64,000 nt of DNA from Deltaproteobacteria bacterium (GTDB lineage: Bacteria; Desulfobacterota; WTBG01; JAGOGO01): positions 2,336 to 66,335 of the forward strand of contig JAGOGO010000001.1 of NCBI GenBank assembly GCA_017996625.1. Direction: 5' to 3'. The notes under the pieces were generated by a model, which saw nothing but the letters and a program-made list of their open reading frames with translations, searched no databases and was not told the origin of the DNA. This document shows, piece after piece, positions 3,776-40,365 of the stretch; position 1 is the stretch's first letter, and each line of letters starts with the position of its first letter. A program made the translations under genes and the position numbers.

Positions 3776-3936
3776 AGTGAAAAGTGAAGAGTGAAAAAAG
3801 TTCACCGTTGACCGAAAAACCAAAGGCTGGAGACGATCCCTTGTCGTCGACAAAAAAGATCTAATCCAGTCGGTCAACGGACAACGGTGAACAGTGAACG
3901 TACCCGTCACTTTTCCTTCCTACTCCTTACTGCTTT
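3776..3936. repeat. intergenic palindromic element, family member A (purine arm, inner 14-bp inverted repeat, pyrimidine arm)
   Basis: AGTGAAAAGTGAAGAGTGAAAAAAG, then TTCACCGTTGACCG ... CGGTCAACGG-ACAA-CGGTGAACAGTGAACG, then CACTTTTCCTTCCTACTCCTTACTGCTTT. Sits between the divIVA stop and the DUF167 start. Confidence 0.5.
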
Positions 3937-4005
3937 ATGCGTCCCTGCGCGAGAAAGAGTAGAGGTAATCGGGTGTCGGCCCTTACTCGACAAACAGGTA
4001 CCGCA

Positions 4006-4299
4006 ATGATTCAGGTGCGTGAAGACAAGACCGGCATCCTTTTTTGGATTACAGTAAAACCCCGGTCGAAGAAAAACGGTGTTATTATTGCCCACGATGA
4101 TACCGTTATCGTGCAGGTTACTGCAGCACCGGTAGAAGGAAAAGCGAATGAAGCGTGCTGTAAGGTCTTGGCCCAGGTGTTGGGAATAAGCAAGTCAAGC
4201 ATTTCCATTCGTACCGGCGAGACCTCAACAAAGAAACTGGTTCATTGCCGGAACATCTTTGCTGAGGAAGTCCGGTTGCGGCTCGATAGCAAAAAGTAA
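4006..4299 (+). CDS. DUF167 (YggU-like) family protein
   Basis: 97 aa from internal ATG (typical YggU length). ILFWITVKPRSKKNGVI...VTAAPVEGKANEA...LAQVLGISKSSISIRTGETSTKKLV matches the DUF167 signature. The upstream part of ORF 3937 overlaps a repeat element. Confidence 0.7.
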   Translation: MIQVREDKTGILFWITVKPRSKKNGVIIAHDDTVIVQVTAAPVEGKANEACCKVLAQVLGISKSSISIRTGETSTKKLVHCRNIFAEEVRLRLDSKK

Positions 4300-4405
4300 G
4301 AAGTTAAAAGTAAGAAGTAAAGAATATAGCGTAAGAAGTCATCAGACGATGAGCCATTTTCTATCCATTAACTCCTCACTTTTCACTCCTTACTTCTTAC
4401 TGTTA
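4294..4405. repeat. intergenic palindromic element, family member B
   Basis: AGTAAGAAGTTAAAAGTAAGAAGTAAAG ... ACTCCTCACTTTTCACTCCTTACTTCTTACTGTT. AGTAAGAAGTAA pairs with TTACTTCTTACT. Between DUF167 and mutM. Confidence 0.5.
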
Positions 4406-4413
4406 AGTGATTC

Positions 4414-5259
4414 ATGCCCGAGCTTCCAGAAGTCGAAACGATTAAGAGGGACCTAGCACCGCAGGTGGCGGGGAAAACGATTACCGCGGTAGAATTCCCT
4501 CCCGATCCTCGTTGCCGAATCCTGCGACGATTCTGCGCCTCGAAGGCCCTTTTTCAGAAGGAGCTTCAAGGCGTCCAAATCCTAAGTCTGCGGCGACGAG
4601 CAAAGTACCTCGTTTTCGATCTTATTCCAGCCGGCAGTCTGATTATGCATCTCGGCATGTCCGGTCAGATTCTCTTGCGTCCCTCAGGTACACCGCCCGA
4701 TCCTTATGTTCGCGCCATCGTATATCTCGATGATGAACACGAGATCCGGTTTTCCGACCCTCGCAAATTCGGCGAAATTCTCTTTTCACGTCCTCCACAG
4801 TGGAATCCGCCGGTGAATTTGGATTCCTTGGGGCCGGAGCCTTTGGAAGGCGAATGCACCATTTCTTATCTGACTGCAGTCCTAAAAAAATCTCACCGAC
4901 CGATCAAAACAGTTCTTATGGATCAGCAGATCATTGCTGGAATCGGAAACATATATAGCGACGAATCCTTATTTGCGGCGGCACTGCATCCCTGTCGTGA
5001 GGCGTGCTCACTGAGCCGAGAGGAGATTGCCCGGCTTCATCGAGCCCTACGTCATATTCTGCGCAAGGCGATCAAATACCGGGGTACTACTGCGCGAGAC
5101 CAGCGTTATCGCGACGGTCTCGGCAGGGCCGGAGAATTTCAGAACAGTCTTCAGGTATACCAGCGTTTCGGCCAGAAATGCCGAAGATGTAGTGCACAAA
5201 TAACAGCTCTTCGGATTGCCGGAAGAACCGCCTCGTTCTGCCCAAGGTGCCAGAAGTAG
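4414..5259 (+). CDS. mutM: formamidopyrimidine-DNA glycosylase (Fpg/MutM)
   Basis: N-terminal MPELPEVETIKRDL (catalytic Pro2/Glu3), H2TH region, C-terminal CxxC...CPRCQ zinc finger. Confidence 0.9.
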   Translation: MPELPEVETIKRDLAPQVAGKTITAVEFPPDPRCRILRRFCASKALFQKELQGVQILSLRRRAKYLVFDLIPAGSLIMHLGMSGQILLRPSGTPPDPYVRAIVYLDDEHEIRFSDPRKFGEILFSRPPQWNPPVNLDSLGPEPLEGECTISYLTAVLKKSHRPIKTVLMDQQIIAGIGNIYSDESLFAAALHPCREACSLSREEIARLHRALRHILRKAIKYRGTTARDQRYRDGLGRAGEFQNSLQVYQRFGQKCRRCSAQITALRIAGRTASFCPRCQK

Positions 5260-5405
5260 TGATAATTCCTCTAATTGCTATTACTACTATCCTGTGATAG
5301 ATTTAAACGATGGAAAATCGAATCATCAGGGTCCTCACCTGTCTACAGACTATGAAGAGTGATTTCGTGCCGGCAGGGAATATGGACTCATGGTGAGTAC
5401 TTCAC

Positions 5406-5855
5406 ATGAAGTACTGTGATATCTGTTGTCAGATCTCAGAACCTATCTCTTGCGGGGAGACGATATGCATGAGCAAGATTATAGAAATCGAAGACCGCAT
5501 TGAGTCGGAAAAACGCAAAAAAACTATAGCAGAAAAAAGACGGGCCATTGCTCCCTTGATTCATTTTCTACAGTGTTCATGCTGCAGAATGAAGTGTTGG
5601 CGTTGCGGTTCACAAGTAGAGCTGGCATCTCCGGGCGTGTCATCACCTGACATTCCGTTCAGCTTCTGTCCCACGTGTCGAGAAGAGTTTTTGGAGTACC
5701 AACGTTCCCAGCAGGAGCCGCTGCAGACAACAACTCCTTGGCACAATCCTGAATGGGAAGCCATGTGGGAAAAATGGATCGAGTATCAGGACGCGGTACG
5801 CACGTTTCATCGCTCTCAGGAGGTCCGGGACCTTTTTGCTGACTTGCGATGTTAA
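5406..5855 (+). CDS. hypothetical cysteine-rich (zinc-ribbon-like) protein
   Basis: ORF with CSCCRMKCWRC...CPTC cysteine clusters and a W/E-rich tail. No family recognised. True start may be the internal ATG (MSKIIEIEDRIE, around 5469). Confidence 0.35.
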   Translation: MKYCDICCQISEPISCGETICMSKIIEIEDRIESEKRKKTIAEKRRAIAPLIHFLQCSCCRMKCWRCGSQVELASPGVSSPDIPFSFCPTCREEFLEYQRSQQEPLQTTTPWHNPEWEAMWEKWIEYQDAVRTFHRSQEVRDLFADLRC

Positions 5856-6159
5856 TGCATTCCACCTTGCTCCATTTACAGGTGTAATTGGGCAACAAAA
5901 GACCTGAACCAGTTTAATAGTGACCGCAAGGAGCAGCAGACGGTATTGCTCGTCGAACCTCTGCCAGCTTAATGCATACTGTAACTCGATCTGCCAAGCA
6001 CTTAATATCTTTTGTATATTGGAAAAAGGTGCGGTCAAATATCACTTCGGCCTGCCGATGCCTTTTCGGAGTGATGAAAACCGTTTGTTTGCTCTCTTAA
6101 CGAATTTTTCACCATGCGCGTATCATGCAAGCTCATGATCCTGGAGAGAAAGCGCTTCT

Positions 6160-6363
6160 ATGGAAAAGGTCTTCATTTACAACGATCTCCTCGGCTTAAA
6201 GGGCACGTCCGGCATTCTTCATGAGGTAAACAGCAAAGGATATTACGTGACCGTTATCAGGATCAAGGAAAAGCGCCACCGGGTTCTGCTTCCGGTTCAG
6301 TCCACTGTAATCATTTACAGCGAACCGATCGTGGAAGTCGAGAATGCTCTCGATCTTGAATAG
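6160..6363 (+). CDS. hypothetical small protein (67 aa)
   Basis: Compact ORF in an otherwise empty gap immediately upstream of the rhodanese gene. No recognisable motif. Confidence 0.25.
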   Translation: MEKVFIYNDLLGLKGTSGILHEVNSKGYYVTVIRIKEKRHRVLLPVQSTVIIYSEPIVEVENALDLE

Positions 6364-6446
6364 AACGATGCTAGTCTGGAGCTGATCCTGGCGGTATGCG
6401 AGGCTCTCTGTGCCGGCGCATCTGAGCTGTTTCTCGCTCACGACGT

Positions 6447-6941
6447 TTGTGGAAGATAACTATGGTGAAACAGAAGGTTGTCGAAGCGCTTGTAATTCTA
6501 CTTGTTTCTGCAGTGCTTGCCATTTTTGCCAATGAACTGAGGTCTGACAGTCTTCCAGTGATTCGGGAAAAGGTTGCTACGTCTGCTGGCAATGATACGG
6601 CTATGGCGCCGACGATTTCGCTGGAGGCGTTTCTCGAAGTTAGCAAACACCCTGGAGTACTGATTCTCGACGTCCGGGCTGAAGAGGATTTTCAGGAAGC
6701 CCATATTCCCGGGGCACAGAGTCTTCCGTCAGAAAGTTCGGAAGAACAGACTGCTTCGGTTCTGCTCGACGTGGGGTATGATCAGGAAATAGTGGTTTAC
6801 TGCTCTGGCAGCGACTGCGAAGCAGCCGAGGATGTTGCCGTCTCACTTTGTGATCGTGGATATAGCGCGGTACGAGTGTTTTCCGGCGGGTGGGAAGAAT
6901 GGATCAACAGCAATCTTCCCATCGAATCTGAAGTGGAATAA
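6447..6941 (+). CDS. rhodanese-like domain protein with N-terminal membrane anchor
   Basis: Hydrophobic N-terminus (LVILLVSAVLAIFA). Rhodanese fold motifs LILDVRAEEDFQEAHIPGA and the active-site loop VVYCSGSDCEAA, with C-terminal GGWEEW. Confidence 0.75.
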   Translation: MWKITMVKQKVVEALVILLVSAVLAIFANELRSDSLPVIREKVATSAGNDTAMAPTISLEAFLEVSKHPGVLILDVRAEEDFQEAHIPGAQSLPSESSEEQTASVLLDVGYDQEIVVYCSGSDCEAAEDVAVSLCDRGYSAVRVFSGGWEEWINSNLPIESEVE

Positions 6942-6944
6942 CAG

Positions 6945-7012
6945 GCGGCAGCTGCAACAAACGAGCATGGAGCACGGAGCAGTGGAGCAGTGGAGCAAAG
7001 AGCAATCAATTG
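6945..7012. repeat. possible purine-rich family member (GGAGCA/GTGGAGCA repeats) after rhodanese stop
   Basis: GGAGCACGGAGCAGTGGAGCAGTGGAGCAAAGAGCAATCAATTGAGAATCAAG. Overlaps the annotated N-terminus of the MauE/DoxX ORF, so either coding or element. Confidence 0.25.
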
Positions 7013-7527
7013 AGAATCAAGATCGACGTAGGGATGCTTTTTTGAGCACCGTAAGTACGTTTGCCAAGAAGATTTTCACCCATCCCATTACCGCTGTGGT
7101 CGGAAGGCTGGTGCTTGGCAGTATCTTTGTGTATGCCGGCTGGGACAAGATTAATGATCCAGAAGCCTTTGCCGAGGCAATACACAACTATCGCATTCTG
7201 CCTGTAGCATCGATTAATCTCGTTGCCATTGTGCTTCCTTGGATAGAGCTGGTTTGCGGAGCACTACTCGTGGCAGGAGTGTTTACCGGTGGAAGCAGTT
7301 TGCTCATAGCGGCGCTTCTCGGGAGTTTTCTGCTTGCTCTGATATCAGCGTTGGTTCGAGGGCTTGATATCAGCTGTGGCTGCTTCTCCGGCCGGAGCAA
7401 AGATCCTATCACCATCTGGTACTTGCTGCGAGATGGGACGCTTCTTTTGTTTTCCCTGCAGATCCTATTTTTTGATCAATGCCGGTATAGCCTTGCTCGA
7501 CTGCGAAAGAAGCGCTCGGCAGTCTGA
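6967..7527 (+). CDS. MauE/DoxX family membrane protein
   Basis: Multi-pass hydrophobic protein (VGRLVLGSIFVYAGWDKINDPEAF...NLVAIVLPWIELVCGALL) with a C-terminal CGCFSG motif. Such proteins commonly partner rhodanese. Start chosen at internal ATG to avoid overlapping the rhodanese gene, but may lie further downstream (a TTG). Confidence 0.6.
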   Translation: MEHGAVEQWSKEQSIENQDRRRDAFLSTVSTFAKKIFTHPITAVVGRLVLGSIFVYAGWDKINDPEAFAEAIHNYRILPVASINLVAIVLPWIELVCGALLVAGVFTGGSSLLIAALLGSFLLALISALVRGLDISCGCFSGRSKDPITIWYLLRDGTLLLFSLQILFFDQCRYSLARLRKKRSAV

Positions 7528-7528
7528 A

Positions 7529-8602: not shown

Positions 8603-8607
8603 GACTT

Positions 8608-12172: not shown

Positions 12173-14848
12173 ATGACCCCCATGGTTCGACAGTATGCTG
12201 CTATCAAGCAGCGCTATCCGGATGCGGTTCTCTTTTTTCGCCTCGGCGATTTCTACGAGATGTTTTTCGAAGACGCTGAGAGGGCATCACGGATTCTTGA
12301 TATTGTTCTTACCTCCCGCGAAGGAGGAAATGGGAACCGCATTCCCATGTGCGGCGTTCCCTATCATGCTGCTCAGGGATACATCACTCGCCTCACGAGA
12401 GAAGGACTTAAGGTGGCGATCTGTGAGCAGGTTGAGGATCCTAAGGCCGCTCGCGGTATCGTGAAACGAGAAGTGATTCGCATCATCACACCTGGCACCA
12501 ATATTCTTGATGAAGCTGATGAATCACAGGAAGAAAACTTTATTGTTGGTATGGTTCAAGAGCAGGGGATCGTCGGGCTTGCTCACCTTAATATGGGAAC
12601 CGGAACGTTTCGCGTAACCGAGCTGGGGTCTCGTGAAGATGTGTTGGGAGAGCTGGCACGCATCAAGCCGACCGAATGTGTGATCCCGGAAAAAATGGCC
12701 CAGTCACCCCACCTCCGGCCATTTCTCGATCGAGAACTCAAGGCAGTCGTCAACACCTATGAGCCATGGGTATTTTCTCTTGAGTATGCGGGTCGTGTAA
12801 TTAAGGAGCAGTTTAAAATTGCTTCCATGCAGGGCCTGGGGCTTGATGAGTATCCGATTGGCGCAATCGCCGCTGGCGCTGTGATTCATTACCTCCGGGA
12901 TAATATGCATGTTTCTCTGGACCATGTGCGGCCGCCTGCGATTTACTCCTCCAGCGAATACATGGTGCTCGACCGCAAGACGCTGCGCAATCTGGAGATC
13001 ATCACGACCACCAGCGGTGAAAAGGGAGATACCACGCTGCTAAAGGTGCTGAACCGGACGGTTACCCCGCTCGGTGGCCGACTGCTGCGGCAGTGGATCC
13101 GGCAGCCGCTCATTGCCGCGAATCTTATCAACGATCGGCTTGATGCAGTCGAGGAGTTTTTTCGTGAACGCAGTCTCATGTTCAAGCTGCGGGAAGCACT
13201 ACGTTTCATCCGAGATCTGGAACGAATTCTCGGTCGACTCGGGTGCAATCTTGGATCAGCCCGGGACCTAGTAGCGTTAAAAGACTCTCTCAAGCAGGTG
13301 CCACAGATGTATGAGCTTCTCTCACCCTGTGCGTCTACTCTGTTAGTGTACCAGCGCAGCCACTTGCATCACCTTGATATCCTTACTGAGGCTATTGAGG
13401 CGGCTATTGTGGATACTCCTCCACTTGGAACCAAAGAGGGAGGCATGATTCGGCGAGGATACCATGCGGAACTCGATGAACTCTATCGTATTGCCCATCA
13501 CGGCAAGGAATGGCTGGCTCAACTGCAGCAGCAGGAAGTCACCCGAACGGGCATAAAGTCACTCAAGATCCGCTATAATAAGGTCTTCGGATATTACATT
13601 GAAATCACGAAAGCGAACCTTGGCCAGGTTCCGGATTATTACATTCGGCGGCAGACGCTGGTCAACGCCGAACGTTTTGTCACTCCTGAGCTCAAAGAGT
13701 ACGAAGAACGAATTCTCGGTGCCGAGGAACGATCCTGCCAGATTGAACTGGAAATTTTTGAAGATCTTAGGAGCCGGGTCCTGCAGCAGAGTCGGGAAAT
13801 TCAGGAATTAGCTGAGTCACTTGCCGTAATCGACATTTTGGCAACCTTCGCGTATCTGGCACAGCAGTATCGATATGTTCGACCGACAATTGATGATAGC
13901 TCCGCAATATCCATTACTGGCGGACGACATCCGGTTGTTGAACACGTACTGGAGGAGGGACGATTCGTAGAAAATGACACCTTTGTCAATTGCGATGATC
14001 AGCAGCTGCTGGTCATTACCGGTCCGAACATGGCAGGCAAGTCGACGTACCTGCGGCAAGTTGCATTGCTCGTGCTTATGGCCCAGAGTGGAAGCTTTGT
14101 TCCTGCCGAGGCCGCACGCTTCGGGGTAGTAGACAAGATATTCACTCGCATCGGTGCTTCAGATAACCTCGCGCGAGGAGAAAGCACTTTTATGGTGGAA
14201 ATGATCGAGACCGCGCACATTTTGAACAATGCAACTGCTCGAAGTCTGATAATTCTGGATGAGATCGGGCGAGGGACCTCAACCTTTGACGGAGTGAGTA
14301 TCGCTTGGGCAGTATGCGAACACCTGTGCCGGCAATCGGGTCCGCGGCCGAAAACCCTCTTCGCCACCCATTACCATGAACTAACCGCCTTGGAAGAGAA
14401 CCTGTCAGGAGTGAAAAACTATACGATAATGGTAAAGGAGTACGAAGACGAAGTGGTTTTTATCCGTAAAATCATGCCGGGCAGCGCCGATCGCAGTTAT
14501 GGTATCCATGTTGGGAAAATGGCTGGATTGCCGGCAGAGGTCGTGGTACGGGCCGAGGCCATTCTCCGTGAACTCGAATCCGGGCCGGCAAAGGTTGGGC
14601 TCGTGAAGGTCCGGCAGCTGCTTCCTGATGCTGCGTTCTCATCGGCTTCAGCAGAAGTTTCTCCTGCAGGCGAGCGCAGCATGCAAACAAGAACCAGGCT
14701 GGAGCGCCAGCTGCCCTTTCTCCAGAGCCTTCCGCAGGACCATCCTGTTGTTAGGGAACTGATCGAGCTTGACATAAATGCCTTGACGCCCCTCCAAGCG
14801 CTCAATCAGCTCAACAAGCTGCAGATAATGGCGCAGAAAAAGGAGTGA
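12173..14848 (+). CDS. mutS: DNA mismatch repair protein MutS
   Basis: 891 aa. N-terminal mismatch-binding motif TPMVRQYAAIKQRYPDAVLFFRLGDFYEMFFEDA, Walker A GPNMAGKSTYLRQ, and DEIGRGTSTFDG. Confidence 0.95.
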   Translation: MTPMVRQYAAIKQRYPDAVLFFRLGDFYEMFFEDAERASRILDIVLTSREGGNGNRIPMCGVPYHAAQGYITRLTREGLKVAICEQVEDPKAARGIVKREVIRIITPGTNILDEADESQEENFIVGMVQEQGIVGLAHLNMGTGTFRVTELGSREDVLGELARIKPTECVIPEKMAQSPHLRPFLDRELKAVVNTYEPWVFSLEYAGRVIKEQFKIASMQGLGLDEYPIGAIAAGAVIHYLRDNMHVSLDHVRPPAIYSSSEYMVLDRKTLRNLEIITTTSGEKGDTTLLKVLNRTVTPLGGRLLRQWIRQPLIAANLINDRLDAVEEFFRERSLMFKLREALRFIRDLERILGRLGCNLGSARDLVALKDSLKQVPQMYELLSPCASTLLVYQRSHLHHLDILTEAIEAAIVDTPPLGTKEGGMIRRGYHAELDELYRIAHHGKEWLAQLQQQEVTRTGIKSLKIRYNKVFGYYIEITKANLGQVPDYYIRRQTLVNAERFVTPELKEYEERILGAEERSCQIELEIFEDLRSRVLQQSREIQELAESLAVIDILATFAYLAQQYRYVRPTIDDSSAISITGGRHPVVEHVLEEGRFVENDTFVNCDDQQLLVITGPNMAGKSTYLRQVALLVLMAQSGSFVPAEAARFGVVDKIFTRIGASDNLARGESTFMVEMIETAHILNNATARSLIILDEIGRGTSTFDGVSIAWAVCEHLCRQSGPRPKTLFATHYHELTALEENLSGVKNYTIMVKEYEDEVVFIRKIMPGSADRSYGIHVGKMAGLPAEVVVRAEAILRELESGPAKVGLVKVRQLLPDAAFSSASAEVSPAGERSMQTRTRLERQLPFLQSLPQDHPVVRELIELDINALTPLQALNQLNKLQIMAQKKE

Positions 14849-15062
14849 GAAGTAAGAAGAAGACGCCCTCGTTGCCAGCTCACGCTTATGCGTCATTCGT
14901 GTTGAATCCCTGTTGCGTGACAAACACGCTAGACGTTCGCGGCGGGGACGCCGCTCCCACAAGGCAGTGAAAAGTGAAATGCAAGAAGTACAAAGGCGAG
15001 GGGTGAGTCGTGTCTTCTCGTTCTTACTCCTCACTCTTGACTCCTTACTCCTTACTGTTTCA
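14849..15062. repeat. intergenic palindromic element, family member C (two purine arms, one long pyrimidine arm) in mutS-mutL spacer
   Basis: GAGAAGTAAGAAGAAGACG ... CAGTGAAAAGTGAAATGCAAGAAGTACAAAGG ... CGTGTCTTCTCGTTCTTACTCCTCACTCTTGACTCCTTACTCCTTACTGTTT. Confidence 0.5.
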
Positions 15063-18010: not shown

Positions 18011-18013
18011 TCA

Positions 18014-21677: not shown

Positions 21678-22499
21678 ACACGATACACTCCGCTTCTCAT
21701 TCAAATGCATGACAGAATGTCTCACGCTTGTATGATGCTCTCTGTTAATTTGAACAACACAGAAGCCTGAAAGAGTGTTATTCAGTTTTGCCGCTCTTCT
21801 TGAATGCCTCACAGTTTCTTTCAAGAACGAAACGTAGTGTCAAGCCTTATGCAAGATTAGAAAAATATTAGCTAAATTTGAGATCTTAGCGTTGTGCTAA
21901 GGTGGACGGAAATACTCGACTTGATCTGGAGGAAGATAAAGGCTGACCGGAATGTTTTACTCTGGCGTGATTGGATCCAAAAAAGGGGTGAGACGGGTAT
22001 ATCACATTGTTTTTGTGGTGAGTTTAAGACCCAAGGGGAGTATGGAGTGAATGATATACCCGTCGTACCCTAATAAAGAGGAGGAGATTATCCGCATCCA
22101 TCAGCAATTGCAAATATTGTACCAGCTTCAGCATGGTACGTATTCAACAAGAAGGACTTGTTCATTTTTGGCTGTTCGTTTCTAATTGAAGAGAAAATCG
22201 AGACATATTGTCTCAGCAAGGCAAGTTAGGGTGTAAATGTGTCACATAAATCCTCGGTGCTATTCATTCGACAACAAAGTTTTGCTTGAAGAAAGCATGC
22301 TTGTGTGAAAATATAGCAAAAAAAATTTGCACATTCATAAAATACTGTTAAGGTGTTGGTAAGCAATACGTTCTGTTTGCAGATATCGCCTTGTCCTGGA
22401 GAAAATTTCAGTAACAAATGTATTGCTGTTAGAAGTGGTAAGAATATTTATAAGACGTATTGTGGCTTTGGCCGGGAGAGAAAGAAGGAAAGATGACGC

Positions 22500-26995: not shown

Positions 26996-27095
26996 CGAAA
27001 AGGGGGAAACGACCTAAAAGTGCAAGAAGGGGTGAACGGCTGGCAACGAGAAGGAATCGGATTAGCCGCCGCCCACCCGGAGGCATGAGCCAAGA
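26996..27095. repeat. intergenic element, family member (AAAAGTGCAAGAAGGGGTGAACGG) in convergent gap
   Basis: Shares TGCAAGAAG...GGGGTGA with member C, and the GGTGAAC core with A and E. Confidence 0.4.
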
Positions 27096-27101
27096 GAGTC
27101 A

Positions 27102-30806: not shown

Positions 30807-32153
30807 ATGGAGCCACAACTCTTGAGGCAGTTTGAAGATCTTGTCAAAAAGAATATCGGCGTAACATCTTATAATCGTTGGTTTTCCCAAATCAAGCCCG
30901 AACGGATTGATGACCGAAAAGCAGTTCTTGCATGCCCTAATACGTTTGTTCTCGATTGGGTCAAACTTCATTACTATCCAATCATTGTGAAGACAATCCG
31001 AGAGTTGTTGGGAGAAACGGTGGCGGTGGAGCTCCTGGTGAAGGAATGTCCTTACGATGAAAACGGTGCAAGGATCAACACCCAGCAGCAGCGCTCACTT
31101 CCGGGAACAGAAAACTATTTGAATTGCCTGCCATTTGTAAATCAGGGATATTCATTCAGCAATTTCGTTGTCGGCCCGAGTAATCACCTGGCCTATGCTT
31201 CGGCCCTGGCGATAACCGAACCCGATTTCAGGCGTTACAATCCCTTTTTCATATACTCATCCGAGGGGCTCGGGAAGACTCATCTTTCAAGCGCCATGGG
31301 AGTGAAGATTTTCAATCACAATGCTGATGTCAAAATCTTCTATACAACCGCCGAGTGGTTCACCCATGAAATGATCCAGGCCCTACGAAAAAATCGGATC
31401 CTGGAATTCAAAGAAAGGTATCGGAAACACTGTGACGTTCTTTTTATCGAGGATATCCAATTTCTTCAGAAGAAAGAAAAAACCCAGGAAGAAATCTTTT
31501 ACACGCTGAATGCGCTGATTCAGATGGGAAAGCAGGTAGTGCTTACTGCGAATGCCAATCCCCGGGAGCTCAGCGACTTGAAATCTAATCTGAAATCGCA
31601 AATGGGAAGCGGGCTGGTAGTAGATATTCGGCAGCCCGATTACGAAACCAGGCGCGAAATTATTACCAAGAAATGTACTGAGGAGAAGGTTGAAATCTCA
31701 GATGATGCTGCCGATTTTATCGCCCGATCGATAACAAGCAACATTCGGGACTTGAAGAGTGCCTTGATCCATGTAATTGCCACTTCATCTCTGCTTGGCC
31801 AAGATATCACCATGGATGTGGTAAAGGAGAGTTTGAAGGGTTTTATAGAAAAGGCCAAAGTGATCGGTATCAATGAAATAAACAGCTTTATCGCCCAATA
31901 CTTCAAGATTTCGTTGGATCAGCTTCGCTCCAAATCCCGCAGTAGGACTGTTACCTATCCCCGGCAGATGTCATATTATTTTTGTCGGAAATATACCAAC
32001 AGTACATTGGCGGAAATCGGGAAGTGCTTCAACCGGAATCACTCATCAGTGGTACGGGCTCTGAATAAGTTCGAATCGAGCCTGCGCACTAATCGCAGTA
32101 TCCGTGACGCTGTCGACTTTTTGACCGAGAAGTTCGAAAAGAGCTATTTGTAG
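30807..32153 (+). CDS. dnaA: chromosomal replication initiator protein DnaA
   Basis: 448 aa. Domain I, AAA+ Walker A (SSEGLGKTHL), and Walker B (FIEDIQF) motifs. C-terminal DnaA-box-binding helix-turn-helix region (RSRTVTYPRQMSYYFCRKYTNSTLAEIGKCFNRNHSSV). Confidence 0.95.
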   Translation: MEPQLLRQFEDLVKKNIGVTSYNRWFSQIKPERIDDRKAVLACPNTFVLDWVKLHYYPIIVKTIRELLGETVAVELLVKECPYDENGARINTQQQRSLPGTENYLNCLPFVNQGYSFSNFVVGPSNHLAYASALAITEPDFRRYNPFFIYSSEGLGKTHLSSAMGVKIFNHNADVKIFYTTAEWFTHEMIQALRKNRILEFKERYRKHCDVLFIEDIQFLQKKEKTQEEIFYTLNALIQMGKQVVLTANANPRELSDLKSNLKSQMGSGLVVDIRQPDYETRREIITKKCTEEKVEISDDAADFIARSITSNIRDLKSALIHVIATSSLLGQDITMDVVKESLKGFIEKAKVIGINEINSFIAQYFKISLDQLRSKSRSRTVTYPRQMSYYFCRKYTNSTLAEIGKCFNRNHSSVVRALNKFESSLRTNRSIRDAVDFLTEKFEKSYL

Positions 32154-32159
32154 GTGGCT

Positions 32160-32255
32160 TGGAGAATGGAGAAAGGGAAAAATGGAGAATAGTGAATTTT
32201 TCCTTTGTTGTCCTTAAGCCCAGAACTATTTAACCATTTTCCCATTCTGCCACTT
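32160..32255. repeat. intergenic palindromic element, family member D, immediately after dnaA stop
   Basis: GGAGAATGGAGAAAGGGAAAAATGGAGAATAGTGAA ... CCATTTTCCCATTCTGCCAC. Same GGAGAATGG / CCATTCTCC arms as member E in inverse order. Confidence 0.5.
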
Positions 32256-32317
32256 AAGGAATATTCCACCTTTTCAGTACCCCAGCTTTTCTTTTACCGC
32301 GTGAAACCGCAGCAAGT

Positions 32318-33655: not shown

Positions 33656-33831
33656 AGGTGCTGGCGAGATAAAGGTGGATGTTTTTCATCAGCTTAACGA
33701 CCAGGCTACCGTATTGTCAAGACAAAACCCCAAATCCACCGCCTCAAACATGATTGCTGTTGTGAGCCGGATGGTTAGCTACTGTCCCTGATCACCAGGA
33801 AAGTACGAGAGGCAAGGCGCCAAGGAGCGAT

Positions 33832-33910
33832 CCCGCGAAGCGGGTTACCCGTCAGCTCTTCTGGCCCGCGAAGCGGGTTACCCGTCAGCTCTTCTGGCCC
33901 GCGAAGCGGG
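33832..33910. repeat. 33-bp tandem repeat, 2.4 copies, each with a CCCGC-GAA-GCGGG hairpin
   Basis: CCCGCGAAGCGGGTTACCCGTCAGCTCTTCTGG x2, then CCCGCGAAGCGGG. Lies in the rarA / iorA divergent intergenic region. Confidence 0.8.
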
Positions 33911-33960
33911 ACAACCCAGCAGATCATGTTTTGATGGTGATTCGGGGGAATGCAGCCTGG

Positions 33961-33989
33961 TTGACAGGGACTATGCTTTGCACTATGAT
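33961..33989 (+). promoter_or_regulatory. sigma70-like promoter upstream of iorA
   Basis: TTGACA, 17 bp (GGGACTATGCTTTGCAC), TATGAT. AAGGAG ribosome-binding site 7 nt before the ATG at 34071. Confidence 0.55.
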
Positions 33990-34070
33990 TGCTGATCGCT
34001 GTCTTAAACTTCTTGCAATCCTCTTTCCCAGTATTCTGACATGTCTTAGTTCTATTCTTAAGGAGCATCA

Positions 34071-35903
34071 ATGAAACGAGTGCTTTCTGGAAATGAGGCA
34101 ATCGCCCGGGGTGCCTACGAAGCTGGCGTGTCTTTTGCGACTGGATATCCGGGAACACCAAGTACGGAGATCCTCGAAAATCTGATACGCTTCGACCGGA
34201 TTACGGTGGAATGGTCTCCAAACGAAAAAGTGGCGCTGGAAGTCGGCAGCGGTGCATCTCTTGGCGGGGCACGAACTCTGGTGACCATGAAACATGTGGG
34301 ACTCAATGTTGCTGCCGATCCGCTTCTCACGCTTCCCTATATTGGGGTCCGAGGCGGTCTCGTGCTTGTGACCGCAGATGACCCGGATATGCACAGCTCA
34401 CAAAACGAACAAGACAACCGCGCCTATGCCTCGTTTGCCAAGGTGCCGCTTTTGGAGCCAAGTGACAGTCAGGAAGCCAAGGACCTTGTTAAGACAGCAT
34501 TTGATCTGAGCGAAAAATTCGATACGCTGGTAATGCTGCGTACAACCACGCGCATTGCCCATTCTGATTCGGTTGTTTCCCTCGGGCAGGTGCGCCGGCC
34601 CAAAGTCTCTCTGCGGATCAGTAAAGACGTTGCGAAGTACGTTATGGTTCCGGCTTTTGCCCGCAGGCGGCATCCTCTGATTGAAAAGAGAATGGGAAAC
34701 CTAGCTGCCCTTGCCGAAATATCTTCTCTGAACCGGATCGAGTGGGGCTCGAAGGATGTAGGAATGATAACCAGCGGAATCAGCTATCAGTACGTCAAAG
34801 AAGTCTATCCTAATTTCTCAGTGCTAAAGCTGGGCATGACCCATCCCTTGCCTGATCGAATGATCAGTCAGTTTGCAGCACGGGTAAAGAAATTGTATGT
34901 GGTTGAAGAGCTGGAGCCGTATCTGGAAGATCACATCCGTAGTTTAGGCGTTGTGGTACACGGGAAATCCCGTTTGCCGCGCTGCGGAGAGCTGAATCCG
35001 GACATCGTCGAACAAGGACTGAGCGCCAAGAAAGTAAAACTCCGCAAAACGGATGTCGCTGTGTCCTCGGTTCCGGCTCGACCGCCGAATCTCTGTGCTG
35101 GTTGTCCTCACCGGGGCGTTTTTTACAGCCTGAATCGATTGAACGTCTTTGTCACCGGCGATATCGGGTGTTACACCCTGGCACATATGCCTCCGCTCAA
35201 TTCCCTGGATACGGCACTATGCATGGGAGCTGGCATCGGCCAAGCTCATGGCATCGAGCGGGCTCTCGGACCTGATGCTCAGGGGAAGGTTGTCGCAGTT
35301 ATAGGCGATTCAACCTTCCTGCATTCCGGTATCACCGGATTAATGAACATGGCATACAATCGGGGGAAAGGAACGGTGGTGCTCTTGGACAACCGTTTTA
35401 CCGCCATGACCGGAGGACAGGAGCATCCGGGAACCGGATTTACAATGGCCGGAGAACCGACATTTCGGGTAGACTATATGCATCTCGGAGAAGCTTTAGG
35501 AGTACGACATATACGGACAATCAATCCGTATAATCTTCAGAAGACCTATTCCGTATTAAAAGAAGAAGCCAGTCGGCCGGAACTTTCTCTCGTGATTTCC
35601 GAGGCTCCATGCATACTGAATCGCCGGGAGTATACACCTTTTACTGATCGGTTTGAAATTGATCAGGAGCAGTGCATCGGCTGCGGAACCTGCATTCGGC
35701 TGGGATGCCCAGCCCTCGGTTGGAATGCAGAAGCTGCTTCCAGGGCCACTGGAGACGGCACCGCGACACGAAAAAAACGCAAAGGATTTGCCTCCCTCGA
35801 TCCTCTGCTTTGCATTGGCTGCGGTATGTGTCAGCAGGTATGTAAAACGAAAGCGATTAGCAAAGTCGCAGAGCAGGGGGTTAAAGAAGACCTCAGTGGT
35901 TAA
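34071..35903 (+). CDS. iorA: indolepyruvate:ferredoxin oxidoreductase alpha subunit-like TPP enzyme
   Basis: 610 aa. N-terminal VLSGNEAIARGAYEAGVSFATGYPGTPSTEI (POR/IOR domain), TPP-binding region, and two C-terminal 4Fe-4S ferredoxin motifs (CIGCGTCIRLGCP, CIGCGMCQQVC). No iorB follows. Confidence 0.7.
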   Translation: MKRVLSGNEAIARGAYEAGVSFATGYPGTPSTEILENLIRFDRITVEWSPNEKVALEVGSGASLGGARTLVTMKHVGLNVAADPLLTLPYIGVRGGLVLVTADDPDMHSSQNEQDNRAYASFAKVPLLEPSDSQEAKDLVKTAFDLSEKFDTLVMLRTTTRIAHSDSVVSLGQVRRPKVSLRISKDVAKYVMVPAFARRRHPLIEKRMGNLAALAEISSLNRIEWGSKDVGMITSGISYQYVKEVYPNFSVLKLGMTHPLPDRMISQFAARVKKLYVVEELEPYLEDHIRSLGVVVHGKSRLPRCGELNPDIVEQGLSAKKVKLRKTDVAVSSVPARPPNLCAGCPHRGVFYSLNRLNVFVTGDIGCYTLAHMPPLNSLDTALCMGAGIGQAHGIERALGPDAQGKVVAVIGDSTFLHSGITGLMNMAYNRGKGTVVLLDNRFTAMTGGQEHPGTGFTMAGEPTFRVDYMHLGEALGVRHIRTINPYNLQKTYSVLKEEASRPELSLVISEAPCILNRREYTPFTDRFEIDQEQCIGCGTCIRLGCPALGWNAEAASRATGDGTATRKKRKGFASLDPLLCIGCGMCQQVCKTKAISKVAEQGVKEDLSG

Positions 35904-36168
35904 GGGTTCAAAGTGGAGCATTAAGCGAAAGCCTCTGGGCGGCTTCGGTCCCCGGTAGATCGCAGAAGAAACTCTTCTTTAGCTGTGATTCCTCACTTCG
36001 TTCGGTGGATAAAGAGCTGAGGCGCAGCCCGCCTAGCCGGCAATGACGGACTGTCGTGAAGTTTCATACGAGGAGTAAAGGAATCCGTTCTCAGCAGGAC
36101 ACTTTATAAGACTCTGGCGACACACGAGCCTCCCAAGAGCCTGCAAGCATAGGATTTCGGTACCGTTC

Positions 36169-37182
36169 ATGACGTATGATCAAACAGATAAAGATTTCAT
36201 ACCGGGCTATCAGCGCCTGCGGCGATCCGGGGAGCTTGCCGAACGGATTCGCCAGGCGTACGAGCGGCTTTCCTGCTGCACACTCTGTCCCCGACAGTGC
36301 CGGGTTAATCGGTATCACGGTGAGCGAGGCTATTGCGGAGCTGGTGACTGTGTGAAAATAGCACGCTTCCTCCCTCACTTTGGTGAGGAGCCGCCCTTGA
36401 TCGGAATGCAAGGGGCCGGAACCATCTTCTTCTCGCACTGTAGTCTGAAATGCTGTTACTGTCAGAATTATCAGATTAGTCATCAGAGCTTGGGGCAGGA
36501 AACAACGGTCGTTGCTCTTGCACGGATCATGTGTGAGCTTCAGGAACAAGGGTGCGCCAATATTGATCTGGTAACTCCGACTCAGTATCTTCCTTTTATT
36601 TTGGATGCGGTTCGCCTCGCGGCAGAGAATGGCCTGATTATCCCTCTGGTATATAACAGCAGCGGGTATGAATCCCTGGAGACACTGCATCTTCTCGACG
36701 ACATCGTGGATATTTTTCTTCCTGATTGGAAATACAGCACCTCAGATCTGGCTGAGGAGTTCTCTCATGCTCCGGACTATCCTTCGGTATGTGAGGAGGC
36801 GGTGCGGGAAATGTACTATCAGGTGGGAGATCTTGTTGAAGACCCAAACGGACTAGCCCGCAGGGGGCTGATTGTTCGACATCTTGTCCTTCCCGGTTCT
36901 CTTGATAACACTGAACGTATCCTCAGGCGGATTGCTGAGCTGTTTCCAGACAGCATCCGAGTGAGTCTCATGTCGCAGTATGTGCCTTGCTATCAGAGTG
37001 AATTGCACCCGGGTCTCGATCGTCCTCTCACTGAAAGCGAGTACGGACGAGCCCGGGAAGTTCTGGAGGAGTGTGGTCTGGCTGAATGCTGGATCCAGGA
37101 GTTAGAAAGCCGTTGCCTTTTTTTGCCTGATTTTACCAAAGAGGATCCCTTTGGGGATACAAGTTCACGGGTCGAAGGTTAG
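36169..37182 (+). CDS. radical SAM protein, PflX-like (pyruvate formate-lyase activase homolog, COG1313 type)
   Basis: N-terminal auxiliary CxLCPRQC...GERGYCG motif followed by the radical SAM CSLKCCYCQN cluster. Confidence 0.7.
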   Translation: MTYDQTDKDFIPGYQRLRRSGELAERIRQAYERLSCCTLCPRQCRVNRYHGERGYCGAGDCVKIARFLPHFGEEPPLIGMQGAGTIFFSHCSLKCCYCQNYQISHQSLGQETTVVALARIMCELQEQGCANIDLVTPTQYLPFILDAVRLAAENGLIIPLVYNSSGYESLETLHLLDDIVDIFLPDWKYSTSDLAEEFSHAPDYPSVCEEAVREMYYQVGDLVEDPNGLARRGLIVRHLVLPGSLDNTERILRRIAELFPDSIRVSLMSQYVPCYQSELHPGLDRPLTESEYGRAREVLEECGLAECWIQELESRCLFLPDFTKEDPFGDTSSRVEG

Positions 37183-37189
37183 CAGGAAC

Positions 37190-37435
37190 TCGGAGCGGGA
37201 AAGATACTGGAATAATGGATGACCTCTTGAAGTGAGCGAGGATCGCGGAAGAAAATCCTAAATGCGAATCTCTCAGCACTAAACAAATTCCAAATCCAAA
37301 GGCTCTAAGGTCCTAAACCAAACGAATTCTCCCATTCTCCATTTTTCCAATCTCCCACCATTCCGCTCCTCAGTCGGTGAACGGTGAACGGACAACGGTG
37401 AACGCGTAAGCCTCTAAGCGGTGAACACGCGGCAG
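37190..37435. repeat. intergenic palindromic element, family member E, plus 4x GGTGAAC direct-repeat array
   Basis: GGAGCGGGAAAGATACTGGAATAATGGATG ... CCCATTCTCCATTTTTCCAATCTCCCACCATTCCGCTCC, then CGGTGAACGGTGAACGGACAACGGTGAACGCGTAAGCCTCTAAGCGGTGAACACGC. The 17-mer AACGGACAACGGTGAAC is identical to 3876-3892. Confidence 0.55.
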
Positions 37436-37593
37436 ATAACCGCAGTATCACGGCCGTGGAGAAACCTCTTGACTTGGTTCGGAAATGAGATAGAGTTTCT
37501 GTTTGATCCTGAGAACGGGTATCGCCCATTCATCAAAGCAGCGTCTGTGTGTCAAGCGGGTGAGCGAAATCAAAGAGAATCACACTGCGTTCC

Positions 37594-38265
37594 ATGGTAC
37601 AAAAGAAACCCAGAGGAGCTTTGAAGCTTGCATATAGCAAGAAGTCTGCGCAAGGGGATCGGTTTCGGAGATCACGATCTCGCATTCTTGCACTGCTTGC
37701 TTTCGTTGCTCTGGCTGCGATTACGGCACTTTCATTGTATATTGTTAAGAACCCCATCTGGGTGGCAGGCTCTGGTTGTACCACAACGTATATTCCCTCG
37801 TCGATTCATTCTCCGGAGGGTTCCTCGATACAACTAAAAAGTGCCAGTGTAACGCTTTTCTTTTCCGATCCAGACAGTGGTCTGTTAATCCGTGAAAAGC
37901 GCTCAATTGTCTGGAATCCTGCAGATCTGAAGAGTCAGGTTCGAGCTATTCTTTATGACCTGCAGAAAGGATCGAAACAGAACCTGCTCAATCCGATGCC
38001 GGCTCTTGCACAAGTACGCGATATCTCTTTCCAGGGCGATATGGCGGTCCTGGATTTCAGCAGAGAATTACGGGATCATCATCCCGGAGGAAGTCTTGCT
38101 GAAATGCATACCATTTATGCTATTGTCAATTCTGTGACCTTGAACATCGCATCCGTCAAAAAAGTTCAGATCCTCATTGAAGGCAAGACTGTGGAAACAT
38201 TGAAAGGGCACATTGACTGCCGTTCACCATTGGCTCCAAACTTTTCCCTTATCAAAGCGAGTTAG
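37594..38265 (+). CDS. GerMN domain-containing (sporulation/germination-like) membrane-anchored protein
   Basis: Basic N-terminus plus TM helix ([21 protein letters not shown]), then a region matching the GerMN fold ([18 protein letters not shown]...VRAILYDL...[33 protein letters not shown]...[11 protein letters not shown]). Confidence 0.5.
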
Positions 38266-38267
38266 CA

Positions 38268-40307
38268 GTGGCCAAGAAGAGCCGTTTGGACAGAATCCGC
38301 AACATTGGTATCATCGCCCATATCGATGCCGGCAAGACTACGGTGACCGAGCGAATTCTTTTCTATACCGGAAGGATTCATAAGATGGGCGAGGTACATG
38401 ATGGACAGGCAGCTATGGACTACCTCATTCAGGAGCAGGAACGAGGCATCACCATCACTTCAGCAGCGACCACGTGCGTGTGGCAAGGCACGGACATCCA
38501 TCTGATTGATACACCCGGGCACGTGGACTTCACGATTGAGGTGGAGCGGTCTCTGAGAGTTCTGGATGGCGCGGTCGTCGTGTTCTGCGCAGTGGGAGGC
38601 GTGGAACCTCAATCGGAGACGGTATGGCACCAGGCAGACAGGTATCGGGTTCCGCGGCTGGCATTCATCAACAAGATGGACCGTATTGGATCGGATTTTC
38701 GCGGCGTCATCCAGCAGATGAAAGACAAGTTGGGTGCCCGGCCGCTCGTTCTTCAGCTGCCGCTGGGATCTGAATCAGACTTCAAAGGAGTTATTGACCT
38801 TATTGCCAATCAGGCGCTGGTTTGGGATGACGATACGCTTGGTGTGTCTTTTACTTCCATGCCGATACCAGAAGCGTATCGTGATGAGGCAGCTGAGTAT
38901 CGCGACCGTCTTATGGAGACACTCGCCGAAGGTGATGACCTTCTTTTAGAAAAGTACCTTTCCGGGGCAGAGATTACTGCCGATGAGGCTCACCAGGCAG
39001 TGCGAAGCCTCACCCTGAGTTATGCGGTAACACCGGTTCTTTGTGGATCAGCATTGCGGAATAAGGGTATTCAACCAGTGCTGGATGCTGTTGTCCGATA
39101 TCTTCCGTCACCGCAGGATGTGCCCGCAGTGATGGGCATTAATCCCCGAACCAATGACAAGGAGGAGAGACTCAGCAGCGATGATGCTCCGCTAACTGCA
39201 TTCGCCTTTAAGGTTCTGACCGATGAGGAAAAGCGAAAGCTAGTGTTTCTACGTATTTATTCTGGCGTGATCCAGGCTGAAACTGCTGTCTACAATGCTT
39301 CCAAGAACAAAACCGAGCGACTGGCCCGCCTGTTTCGAATGTATTCTAATAAGCGGGAGCGATTACCTGAGGCTCGCGCGGGAGACATTGTCGCTGCCGT
39401 GGGCCTCAAGGATACAATTACCGGTGATACCCTCTGTGATCCTCAACATCCAATTCTTCTCGAGCCCCTTGATTCTTACCGCCCGGTGATGTCTGTCGCT
39501 ATAGAGCCGAAGACCCGCAGTGACATGGAAAAGCTGGAGGGCGCGTTAAACAAGCTGGTGGATGAAGATCCGACGTTTACCGTCAAGCATGATGAAGACT
39601 CTGATCAGACTATTATTTCAGGCATGGGAGAGCTGCATCTGGATGTGCTGGTTACCAGGCTGCTGCAAGATTTCAATATCAACGTTAACGTGGGCAAGCC
39701 CCAGGTCGTGTATCGTGAGACGATCACGAGATCTGTTGAACACGAAGCAACCTTTGACCGGGAAATCGGGGGAACGCGCAACTACGGTAACGTACGGGTT
39801 AGGCTTGAGGCTCTGAAACGCGGAAGCGGCGTTGAATATGCAAATACGCTGGCAGAAGGTAGTCTCCCTGCGAATATCCTCAGTGCCATCGAAATGGGAA
39901 TCCATGAAAGGCTTCTATCCGGCGTGGCGGCTGGTTATCCGGTTGTCGATGTGAAGATCAGTCTGATCAATGCCCTGCTCCAGGATAGTGCCTCTACTGA
40001 ACTAGCCTATAAGATTGCCGCATCAATGGCGGTAAAAGAAGGATGCGAAAAAGCCGGCCCGGTTCTCCTTGAGCCGATTATGGCCCTTGATGTCGTAGTA
40101 CCGGAGGAATTCATGGGCGAGGTTATCGGTGATCTCAATGCGCGGCGAGGCAGACTTGGCAATATTACACCTAAAGGAAAGGTATCGGTGATCAAGGCAA
40201 TGGTACCGCTCAAAGAAACCTTCGGTTATTCCACGAGCCTGCGATCAGCCAGCCAGGGCCGCGGCACATTTACCATGCAGTTTTCTCATTACGACCAGGC
40301 GGGATAG
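38268..40307 (+). CDS. elongation factor G paralog (EF-G2-like translational GTPase)
   Basis: 679 aa, GTG start 3 nt after the upstream stop. G domain [21 protein letters not shown], and EF-G domains II-V. Shorter and more divergent than canonical FusA, and not in a str operon (rpsL-rpsG-fusA-tuf). Confidence 0.85.
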
Positions 40308-40309
40308 GG

Positions 40310-40365
40310 ATTAGTTAAGTGGAGAATTGGTCAAATAGTGAATTGGTAGAATGATTGAGTTGCAT
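40310..40365. repeat. purine-rich family member after the EF-G paralog stop
   Basis: AGTTAAGTGGAGAATTGGTCAAATAGTGAATTGGTAGAATGATTGAG (AGTGGAGAA / AGTGAATTGG units). Confidence 0.35.

Follow-up and report, generated by a model that had tools for sequence, protein, structure and literature searches.

Stop-proximal tandem heptanucleotide arrays, many of them in inverted pairs, in the intergenic gaps of an uncultured digester bacterium

Heptanucleotide repeats are the most abundant class of long simple-sequence repeats (LSSRs) in most of the prokaryotic genomes studied by Mrazek (2007, as reported in PMC4679880), where they are put down to polymerase slippage. In Xanthomonas, 70-75 convergent inverted pairs of GGGAATC arrays occur per genome, conserved in position and variable in length (Rehm et al. 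2015, PMC4692102), and in Geobacter metallireducens groups of 3-5 tandem 7-9-nt repeats lie in pairs on the two strands, separated by a variable distance (Aklujkar et al. 2009, PMC2700814). The class also has members built as direct repeats: the short tandemly repeated repetitive sequences (STRRs) of cyanobacteria, the group that provided the first description of heptamer arrays, the TAACTGA repeats of Beggiatoaceae (MacGregor 2015, PMC4679880) and the heptamers near start codons in Nostoc (bioRxiv 10.1101/2022.06.06.494920). Here we describe intergenic elements of this class in a stretch of 64,000 nt (hereafter the window; contig JAGOGO010000001.1, positions 2,336 to 66,335) from an uncultured digester bacterium deposited as Deltaproteobacteria bacterium, assembly GCA_017996625.1. 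An initial annotation had noticed up to eight intergenic gaps in the window where a purine-rich run next to a stop codon is followed by a complementary pyrimidine-rich run, and had found no named repeat class to match them. Such a class has been described, namely the heptanucleotide LSSR/STRR type, with its convergent pairs in Xanthomonas and its paired sites in G. metallireducens. The heptamer-array class and the convergent-pair arrangement are already known, and what is new here is the units and the lineage.

The runs in the window are lineage-specific tandem heptanucleotide arrays of the LSSR/STRR type. The stretches on which the initial annotation was built are all present, but the hexamer or nonamer units it proposed (AGTGAA, AGTAAGAAG or GGAGAATGG) are in fact heptamers according to both Tandem Repeats Finder (TRF) and a sliding periodicity scan over periods 4-12. 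TRF reported six loci with a period of 7 (3776-3797, 4291-4321, 32160-32190 and 37375-37404), 7/8 (6963-6997) or 14 (15022-15056). In the scan, 7 was the dominant short period, with four arrays against one each for periods 8 and 9 and none for any other period, and a looser threshold gave six period-7 arrays. The units are AGTGAAN, AGTAAGA, GGTGAAC and GGAGAAT, as can be read in AGTGAAA-AGTGAAG-AGTGAAA, AGTAAGA-AGTTAAA-AGTAAGA-AGTAAAG, GGTCAAC-GGACAAC-GGTGAAC-AGTGAAC and GGAGAAT-GGAGAAA. As in LSSRs, which lie mainly outside coding sequence, at least three 7-nt copies stand head to tail, and all arrays of the window lie between open reading frames (ORFs). Several unit types coexist in the host genome, arms can be mosaics of two types, and RGTRAAN units recur across the window. 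The suggestion that sequences are common to several loci holds for ACTCCTTACT (14 seen vs 2.3 expected at up to one mismatch), for RGTGAANRGTGAA (8 vs 1.0 at up to one mismatch, every copy inside elements) and for a match of 21/22 nt between 3871-3892 and 37382-37403, in two elements with unrelated spacers. It is weak for the nonamers originally cited, GGAGAATGG (4 seen vs 0.83 expected) and TGCAAGAAG (5 vs 0.95), both with several copies outside the cited elements. Arms vary between loci, and the spacers bear no relation to one another, none being repeated in the window. Independent assemblies from more than 10 samples, including several anaerobic-digester metagenomes and two NCBI metagenome-assembled genomes (MAGs), are 99.9-100% identical over the cited stretches, and the elements are therefore not assembly artefacts.

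Most of the gaps have a purine-rich array that starts at the upstream stop codon or at most about 9 nt from it, and a reverse-complementary pyrimidine-rich array follows 30-150 nt downstream, so that the whole gap can fold into a long imperfect hairpin with its base touching the stop codon. Because purine and pyrimidine runs pair to some extent by composition alone, arm duplexes were compared with duplexes whose 3' arm had been shuffled internally with its composition kept (z given as sense/antisense), and whole-gap folds were compared with dinucleotide shuffles. Close, convergent opposite-strand arrays able to form a stem-loop, with arms pairing beyond composition-matched shuffles, were found at five loci, all purine-first: 3774-3932 (E1), 4291-4406 (E2), 14840-15057 (E3), 32160-32254 (E4) and 40308-40447 (E6). 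Their purine-rich arrays lie no more than 9 nt from the stop codon, the stem base falls from -7 to +9 nt relative to the last nucleotide of that stop codon, and the first units of E2 and E3 include the stop codon. Whole-gap fold z ranges from -1.6 to -7.4 over the paired elements. Sense and antisense duplexes are both significant at E1, E2 and E3, and at E4 and E6 the antisense duplex alone is clear, with the sense duplex marginal. Thus the recurrence of an element class starting at or just after stop codons and the ability of its arms to pair in a thermodynamic fold agree with the initial annotation, whereas the paired arms and the long imperfect hairpins without a U-tract hold for most elements and not for three of the eight loci (37190-37435, 6945-7012 and 26996-27101).

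The first element, E1, is nested, with an inner GTTCACC/GGTGAAC pair enclosed by an outer AGTGAAN/TCACTTT pair. Its outer 5' arm (3774..3799, on the + strand like all arms and arrays of the window given below) reads AGTGAAA/AGTGAAG/AGTGAAA (TRF period 7, 3.1 copies), contains TGA in all three frames and starts 9 nt past the stop codon (3763-3765) of divIVA, the identity of which was confirmed by Pfam. It is followed by the inner 5' arm (3800..3814), GTTCACCGTTGACCG, a complement of GGTSAAC units, by the inner 3' arm (3871..3899; GGTCAAC GGACAAC GGTGAAC AGTGAAC, from the periodicity scan) and by the outer 3' arm (3907..3932), TCACTTTTCCTTCCTACTCCTTACTG, which stops 4 nt short of ATG 3937. The inner duplex (3800-3814/3871-3899) reaches -23.7 kcal/mol (z -6.3), a value attained by 0/500 shuffles. 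All arms together (3774-3814/3871-3932) give a duplex z of -6.0/-6.3, the outer arms alone are weak (z -1.9/+0.5), and the whole gap (3766-3936) folds at -59.1 kcal/mol with z -5.4 on the + strand and -5.1 on the - strand. The start of the following DUF167 gene is either 3937 or 4006, the latter being the pipeline-called one, which would lengthen this first gap. In E2 the 5' arm (4291..4339) is an AGTAAGA/AGTTAAA array, found by TRF with periods 7 and 14 and as an inverted repeat, that runs over the DUF167 stop codon (4297-4299), and the 3' arm (4368..4406), TTAACTCCTCACTTTTCACTCCTTACTTCTTACTGTTAA, stops 7 nt upstream of the mutM ATG (4414), and the interval lacks a canonical Shine-Dalgarno sequence. 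The arms (4291-4339/4368-4406) have a duplex z of -2.7/-5.4, and the whole gap (4288-4413) folds at -24.9 kcal/mol (z -2.6) on the + strand and at -45.5 kcal/mol (z -7.4) on the - strand.

Between mutS and mutL, the 5' arm of E3 (14840..14865), AAGGAGTGAGAAGTAAGAAGAAGACG, includes the mutS stop codon (14846-14848), and the 3' arm (15013..15057; CTTACTC CTCACTC TTGACTC CTTACTC CTTACTG, from TRF) lies 30 nt upstream of the mutL start (15089). The arms (14840-14865/15013-15057) pair with z -3.6/-3.4, and the whole gap folds with z about -2.2 on the + and about -2.5 on the - strand. An internal purine array found by motif match (14966..14990; AGTGAAA AGTGAAA TGCAAGAAGTA) does not pair with the 3' arm above chance (z -1.4). 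The two remaining paired elements lie in convergent gaps. E4 begins 6 nt past the dnaA stop codon (32151-32153) with a GGAGAAT/GGAGAAA/AGTGAAT arm (32160..32196; TRF period 7) and has a 3' arm at 32229..32254 ending in ACCATTTTCCCATTCTGCCAC; the duplex z of 32160-32196/32229-32254 is -1.6/-3.3 and the whole-gap z -1.6 (+) and -1.8 (-). E6 begins 1 nt past the stop codon (40305-40307) of an EF-G paralog with a loose 7-9-nt periodic purine run (40308..40358; GTTAAGTGGAGAATTGGTCAAATAGTGAATTGGTAGAATG) and has a 3' arm at 40417..40447 ending in CCACTTAACGATTCAACCAATTCCG; the duplex z of 40308-40358/40417-40447 is -2.0/-3.4 and the whole-gap z -2.1 (+) and -2.7 (-).

The other three loci turned out differently from what had been proposed. 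In the gap 37190-37435, a hairpin had been suggested between two arrays, but these do not pair with each other on the + strand (z 0.0) and the whole-gap fold z is 0 on both strands. One of them, E5a (37326..37364), is a pyrimidine-rich 7-8-nt array (ATTCTCC CATTCTCC ATTTTTCC AATCTCCC; TRF period 8) with a weak partner at 37190-37222 (duplex z -2.6/-3.1), and the other, E5b (37375..37404; CGGTGAA x4.3, TRF and periodicity scan), has no complementary arm nearby. The possible copy at 6945-7012 has a 7/8-nt array without a partner, close to a start codon that is uncertain (E8, 6963..6997; GAGCACG GAGCAGTG GAGCAGTG GAGCAAA, from TRF), between the stop codon of a rhodanese gene (6941) and a MauE/DoxX domain; its fold z is positive on both strands (+0.7). 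It may belong to a 5' untranslated region or to an N-terminal extension, as the MauE/DoxX start differs between gene callers (6958-7090) and the Pfam domain is recognised from about nt 7090. Finally, 26996-27101, between a 162-aa hypothetical gene and a DUF6811 gene, has no array and instead a hairpin GGGTGAACGGCTG...GCCGCCCACCC with fold z -1.2 (+) and -2.8 (-). Since this array-free hairpin is conserved in a relative with 80% identical DnaA (L226:5717-5830), it is a different feature. For annotation, the elements should be regarded as simple-sequence arrays and not as a new RNA gene family, and start and stop calls next to them are unreliable: the pipelines disagree on DUF167 and MauE/DoxX, whose Pfam domains begin well downstream of the ambiguous starts (3937-4005 and 6958-7090).

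The window has much in common with the GGGAATC arrays of X. campestris and X. axonopodis, which are likewise tandem 7-nt units in mostly intergenic position, with convergent opposite-strand arrays that lie close together and can form a stem-loop, and whose position is kept in related genomes while length and sequence vary. However, its units are A-rich (AGTGAAN, AGTAAGA, GGTGAAC), mostly lack the G-tracts of the Xanthomonas G-quadruplex formers and show no regular GGG tracts, several unit types coexist and form mosaic arms, and anchoring to stop codons has not been reported in Xanthomonas. The "global regulator binding sites" of G. metallireducens are also opposite-strand pairs of short tandem arrays with variable spacing, present in one species and absent from a close relative, and the species belongs to the same phylum-level neighbourhood (Thermodesulfobacteriota) as judged by nearest named homologues. 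Their consensus units (GTTGCTYN, TCTCCGTS, MTYCTGA) differ from ours, they have been read as putative integration host factor (IHF)/HU sites, and a relation to stop codons is not described. The STRR, TAACTGA and Nostoc types share the intergenic tandem heptamers and the abundance in sporadic lineages, and many of them are found just a few nt away from a start codon with no canonical ribosome-binding site, as are the 3' arm of E2 before mutM and an array in the metagenome contig L123. Yet the STRR/TAACTGA types are almost all direct (in Beggiatoa 169 direct sets and 1 indirect) and upstream of starts, whereas the TAACTGA unit is absent from the arrays of the window, the arrangement is mostly of inverted pairs with the first arm tied to a stop codon, and the next start codon is reached only by the 3' arm of E2, and by that of E1 if DUF167 starts at ATG 3937. 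With these elements, this uncultured digester bacterium joins the scattered lineages whose intergenic space has been colonised by heptamer arrays.

Repetitive extragenic palindromic (REP) sequences and bacterial interspersed mosaic elements (BIMEs) of enterobacteria and pseudomonads, which the initial annotation had named as a possible likeness, are the best analogy for a role, but membership in that class fails. Like the elements described here, they are extragenic imperfect palindromes without a U-tract, downstream of genes in co-directional or convergent gaps, and many E. coli REPs are near enough to a stop codon to affect terminating ribosomes (PMC12306157). All eight loci of the window lie in co-directional or convergent gaps and none in its seven divergent gaps, a distribution that is not significant alone. 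In contrast to REP/BIME, the arms are tandem 7-mers that differ between loci and there is no common 20-40-nt palindrome consensus and no recurrent GTAG or CGTC tag. Within the 64-kb window, no gene for a REP-associated tyrosine transposase (RAYT) was found by a search for Y1_Tnp homologs (tblastn best E = 0.29). A relative with 60% identical MutM does encode a Y1_Tnp (PF01797) RAYT/IS200-like protein (L225:13445-14056, - strand) and has no heptamer arrays in 21 kb. A miniature inverted-repeat transposable element or other mobile cassette was rejected, as no spacer of the window is repeated and two pairs in L122 share arms but have unrelated spacers.

Several features of the arrangement recur outside the window. 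The initial annotation had expected a repeat family, and comparable elements are present in related genomes, in unrelated genomes and in at least 120 metagenome stretches; they do not form one homologous family suited to a single covariance model, because the arms differ between loci and the spacers are unrelated. The window was pooled with three related loci and with 80 loci centred on MutS, taken from unrelated genomes and serving as an unbiased control set; according to a simple ORF caller, 91% of these 1.43 Mb is coding. In this set 24/32 period-7 arrays are non-coding, and 14/32 have an inverted partner within 300 nt compared with two having a direct partner, whereas period-6 and period-9 arrays are mostly coding (23/25 and 26/30, respectively) and almost never have inverted partners. 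The genome collection contained no close species (best MutS identity 49-51%) and no orthologous elements. A Clostridia MAG has CATCAGC x4, a 70-nt spacer and CTGATGC x4 placed precisely in the gap from the mutS stop codon to the mutL ribosome-binding site, and CAGCCCA/TGGGCTG upstream of mutS, and several Desulfobacterota MAGs have AGTGAAT, GGTGAAA, GCTCTTT/AAAGAGC and similar units. Fold z of these other-genome cases is -2.2 to -5.9, and CAGCCNN-type units recur within one of the genomes (L014). The order of stop codon, array, spacer, reverse-complement array and Shine-Dalgarno sequence or start is thus repeated with unrelated units.

The metagenome stretches were collected with the pattern AGTGAANAGTGAANAGTGAA (AGTGAAN x3) and come from contigs of 23-75% GC. 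Among the matches listed, adjacent arrays no more than 300 nt apart were purine-first (AGTGAA...TTCACT) in 16 cases, pyrimidine-first in four, all with an identical 57-nt gap, and direct in 10, while random orientation predicts 1:1:2. Where an upstream ORF lies on the same strand, its stop codon falls within -11 to +9 nt of the array in 19/23 of these matches, and distances to the neighbouring start are spread over 0-140 nt. In L123 the arms run straight to the ATG, and in L121 they are mosaics of two unit types in mirrored order. The stop-anchored, purine-first inverted layout is therefore seen with unrelated units in Clostridia, in Desulfobacterota MAGs and in many metagenome contigs, in samples that are small and non-random. 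The period-7 excess of inverted partners, the orientation bias and the stop anchoring offer handles for experiments on function.

A few contigs carry arrays in other surroundings. At L108:186-642, AGTGAAT x4 and ATTCACT x4 flank a small ORF that, read from its translation, encodes a putative four-helix-bundle / 23S rRNA intervening-sequence protein, and the 3' ATTCACT array (L108:610-650) falls within the following ORF, in the part predicted to code for a signal peptide, so that translation of an array is possible. At L227:21108-21356 a gene of the same type (PF05635) has a GTCAGTG array directly at its stop codon. A rumen-type metagenome contig (L125:2540-2760) has compound arrays, GAGAGTT xN followed by AGTGAAG x4, duplicated as a block of about 140 nt.

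Comparison between relatives suggests growth and loss of whole units. Sixteen near-identical contigs show about 15 single-base differences and two indels, the background being about 1 single-nucleotide polymorphism per 10 kb. One indel, in L087 (99.92% identical), is the loss of exactly one unit, ACTCCTT at 15040-15046, from the pyrimidine array of E3, and the other is a 1-nt deletion at 11432 in L090. The whole-unit loss is the signature of slippage, observed as a single event, and together with sporadic, lineage-specific abundance such a copy-number change is what characterises LSSRs. At greater distance, gene context is kept with variation of length and sequence at two sites. The element upstream of mutM is retained in L097 (MutM 69% identical), where the arms have diverged and still pair (fold z -4.2); of 24 predicted pairs, four are changed on both sides in a compensatory manner and none is broken. 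The site after dnaA is occupied in L226 and L227 (DnaA 80% and 69% identical) by diverged G-rich quasi-heptamers in the same place. Other gaps gain or lose arrays between relatives, for example a pair in L227 that lies between the POR-like gene and the radical-SAM gene and extends as far as the ATG. At a detection threshold of 0.70 there are six arrays in the window (64 kb), two in L097, one each in L101 and L226 and three in L227, and none in 82 kb from four relatives at 53-60% MutM identity. The 5.6 kb upstream of the window in L087 are free of arrays as well. Since sites are shared with closer relatives and the distant ones have no arrays, the arrays are a recent lineage-specific expansion with fast turnover. 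MutM and DnaA homologues at 56-65% identity are labelled as Deltaproteobacteria, Desulfobacterota or Thermodesulfobacteriota MAGs, and judged from these names the host is probably a deep lineage of Thermodesulfobacteriota.

The explanation we favour, with a probability of about one half, is that these are heptamer slippage arrays whose arms are kept complementary and whose hairpin has a REP/BIME-like role in the transcript. Replication slippage of whole units would make the arrays grow and shrink, and complementarity would be kept by selection on pairing or by template switching in quasi-palindromes, in which replication copies one arm from the other. Within the mRNA, the hairpin would then be a structure at the 3' end or between cistrons, stopping 3'-to-5' exonucleases and determining how stable operon segments are relative to one another. 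As the base of the stem is no further than a ribosome footprint from the stop codon, termination of the upstream gene could be modulated as well, and a TGA or TAA every 7 nt, and hence in each of the three frames, would prevent the stem from being melted by ribosomes. REP elements protect the mRNA upstream of them and, at nearby stop codons, can stall ribosomes and disturb termination (PMC12306157), and by this analogy and from the position of the elements a post-transcriptional role of the REP type seems the most likely function. 

Several observations weigh against this explanation. The antisense strand folds as well as or better than the sense strand at E2 (-45.5 vs -24.9 kcal/mol), E4, E5 and E6, owing to + strand mismatches of the A.C type, and across other genomes sense and antisense energies are mixed. 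The lack of a sense-strand advantage fits copying at the DNA level better than selection on pairing in mRNA, and template switching can both create and maintain hairpins and give apparent compensatory changes (PMC8794818). The post-dnaA arrays of L226 and L227 have no significant hairpin (z -0.7 or weaker), E5b, E8 and arrays in L032 and L018 have no partner, and stop codons in all frames are not universal: GGAGAAT and CAGCCCA units lack stops, and in L014 the stop-containing arm faces inward. On account of these units and of L014 we rejected all-frame stop codons as a universal property, and with antisense folding as well or better, selection for a sense-mRNA hairpin as revealed by tolerance of G.U pairs is unsupported. 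Mimicry of Shine-Dalgarno and anti-Shine-Dalgarno sequences (AAGGAG in purine arms, CTCCTTA in pyrimidine arms) was dropped as a general explanation, as the units found in other genomes are unrelated.

The REP-like role has a serious rival in a neutral origin, possible although on the unlikely side in our judgement. According to this view, heptamer slippage and template-switch copying across small pre-existing palindromes produce arrays that accumulate where they are harmless and have no function, and arrays would abut stop codons as they expand up to the coding constraint, units that carry stops being impossible to absorb into ORFs. Such a by-product agrees with the rapid turnover and the absence of arrays at 53-60% MutM identity, with the slippage polymorphism in L087, with the missing sense-strand advantage and with the fact that E2 resembles a decaying copy of the better-paired L097 element, and it would follow the general pattern in which heptanucleotide repeats, the commonest long simple-sequence class, have been put down to polymerase slippage (Mrazek 2007, as reported in PMC4679880). 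On the other hand, neutral growth does not predict the 16:4 purine-first bias among the matches listed, and it is hard to reconcile with the strong excess of inverted over direct partners specific to period 7, with the recurrence of AGTGAAN in listed contigs of 23-75% GC, and with the position kept at two orthologous sites (MutM 69%, DnaA 69-80% identity), of which the mutM site shows compensatory changes. The arrays could also be binding sites at the DNA level, where a nucleoid-associated or regulatory protein of the IHF/HU type, as the Geobacter authors proposed for their sites (PMC2700814), or a domesticated transposase as in REP-RAYT systems would bring the bound arrays of an inverted pair together. 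The similarity of units within a genome (RGTRAAN and the 21/22-nt match in the window, CAGCCNN in L014) and the fixed inward/outward polarity of the pairs, which resembles terminal inverted repeats, speak for such sites; we nevertheless regard them as improbable, as units vary widely between loci and genomes while the two arms of a locus stay complementary, no array lies in any of the window's seven divergent, promoter-containing gaps, the window has no Y1-transposase homolog and the sole relative with a Y1_Tnp gene has no arrays.

Still more doubtful is a reading of purine-first pairs as a widespread translational device, in which all-frame stops would shield the stem and the stem would bring the stop codon next to the downstream start, allowing termination-reinitiation across a gap of 100-250 nt. 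The cases that suggest it are E2 before mutM, L123 before a putative coaX-like gene and L227 before a radical-SAM gene, some of these starts being without a Shine-Dalgarno sequence, and if it were true, the recurrence of AGTGAAN at 23-75% GC would stem from a conserved interaction with the ribosome or with a protein associated with it. The least probable, and in our opinion very unlikely, are the unconventional transcription terminators or independent small-RNA genes that the initial annotation had considered. Long hairpins do lie directly past stop codons, and E4 and E6 are between convergent genes, but the genes around E1-E3 run co-directionally (divIVA-DUF167-mutM, mutS-mutL), and termination there would deprive the downstream ones of transcription. 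Moreover, unlike intrinsic terminators with their GC-rich stem and U-tract, the arms are AT-rich with no T-run after them, whereas canonical GC stems with a T-run are seen by eye elsewhere, e.g. at 52250-52275 and L087:1660-1702. A promoter/terminator scan gave totals at chance level with none at the elements, Rfam covariance models at the gathering score gave 0 matches over the whole window, and a tRNA/tmRNA scan of the window found nothing. Compared with these alternatives, the slippage arrays with a REP/BIME-like transcript role are the reading we prefer.

Four features of the elements stand out: the consistent A.C asymmetry on the + strand, the purine-first bias, the occurrence of AGTGAAN across widely differing GC contents and the near-identical 22-mer common to two elements with unrelated spacers. 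The window also contains features other than the heptamer arrays. Cumulative GC skew climbs steadily over 1-64000, dnaA at 30807 included, with no minimum beside dnaA. A 33-nt perfect tandem repeat of 2.4 copies (CCCGCGAAGCGGGTTACCCGTCAGCTCTTCTGG) was found by TRF at 33832-33910, in the divergent gap that precedes the POR-like gene at 34071. In another divergent gap (43197-43631), a 20-nt inverted repeat (43397-43416/43527-43546) is 95% complementary with a 110-nt spacer and is unrelated to the heptamer arrays. Finally, the region 21678-22499 comprises 822 nt of lower GC without an ORF of at least 80 aa and has a 19-nt inverted repeat inside (21986-22004/22052-22070); a part of it, GGGTATATCACATT...GATATACCCGTCGT, is conserved in the relative L226 at about 580-660.

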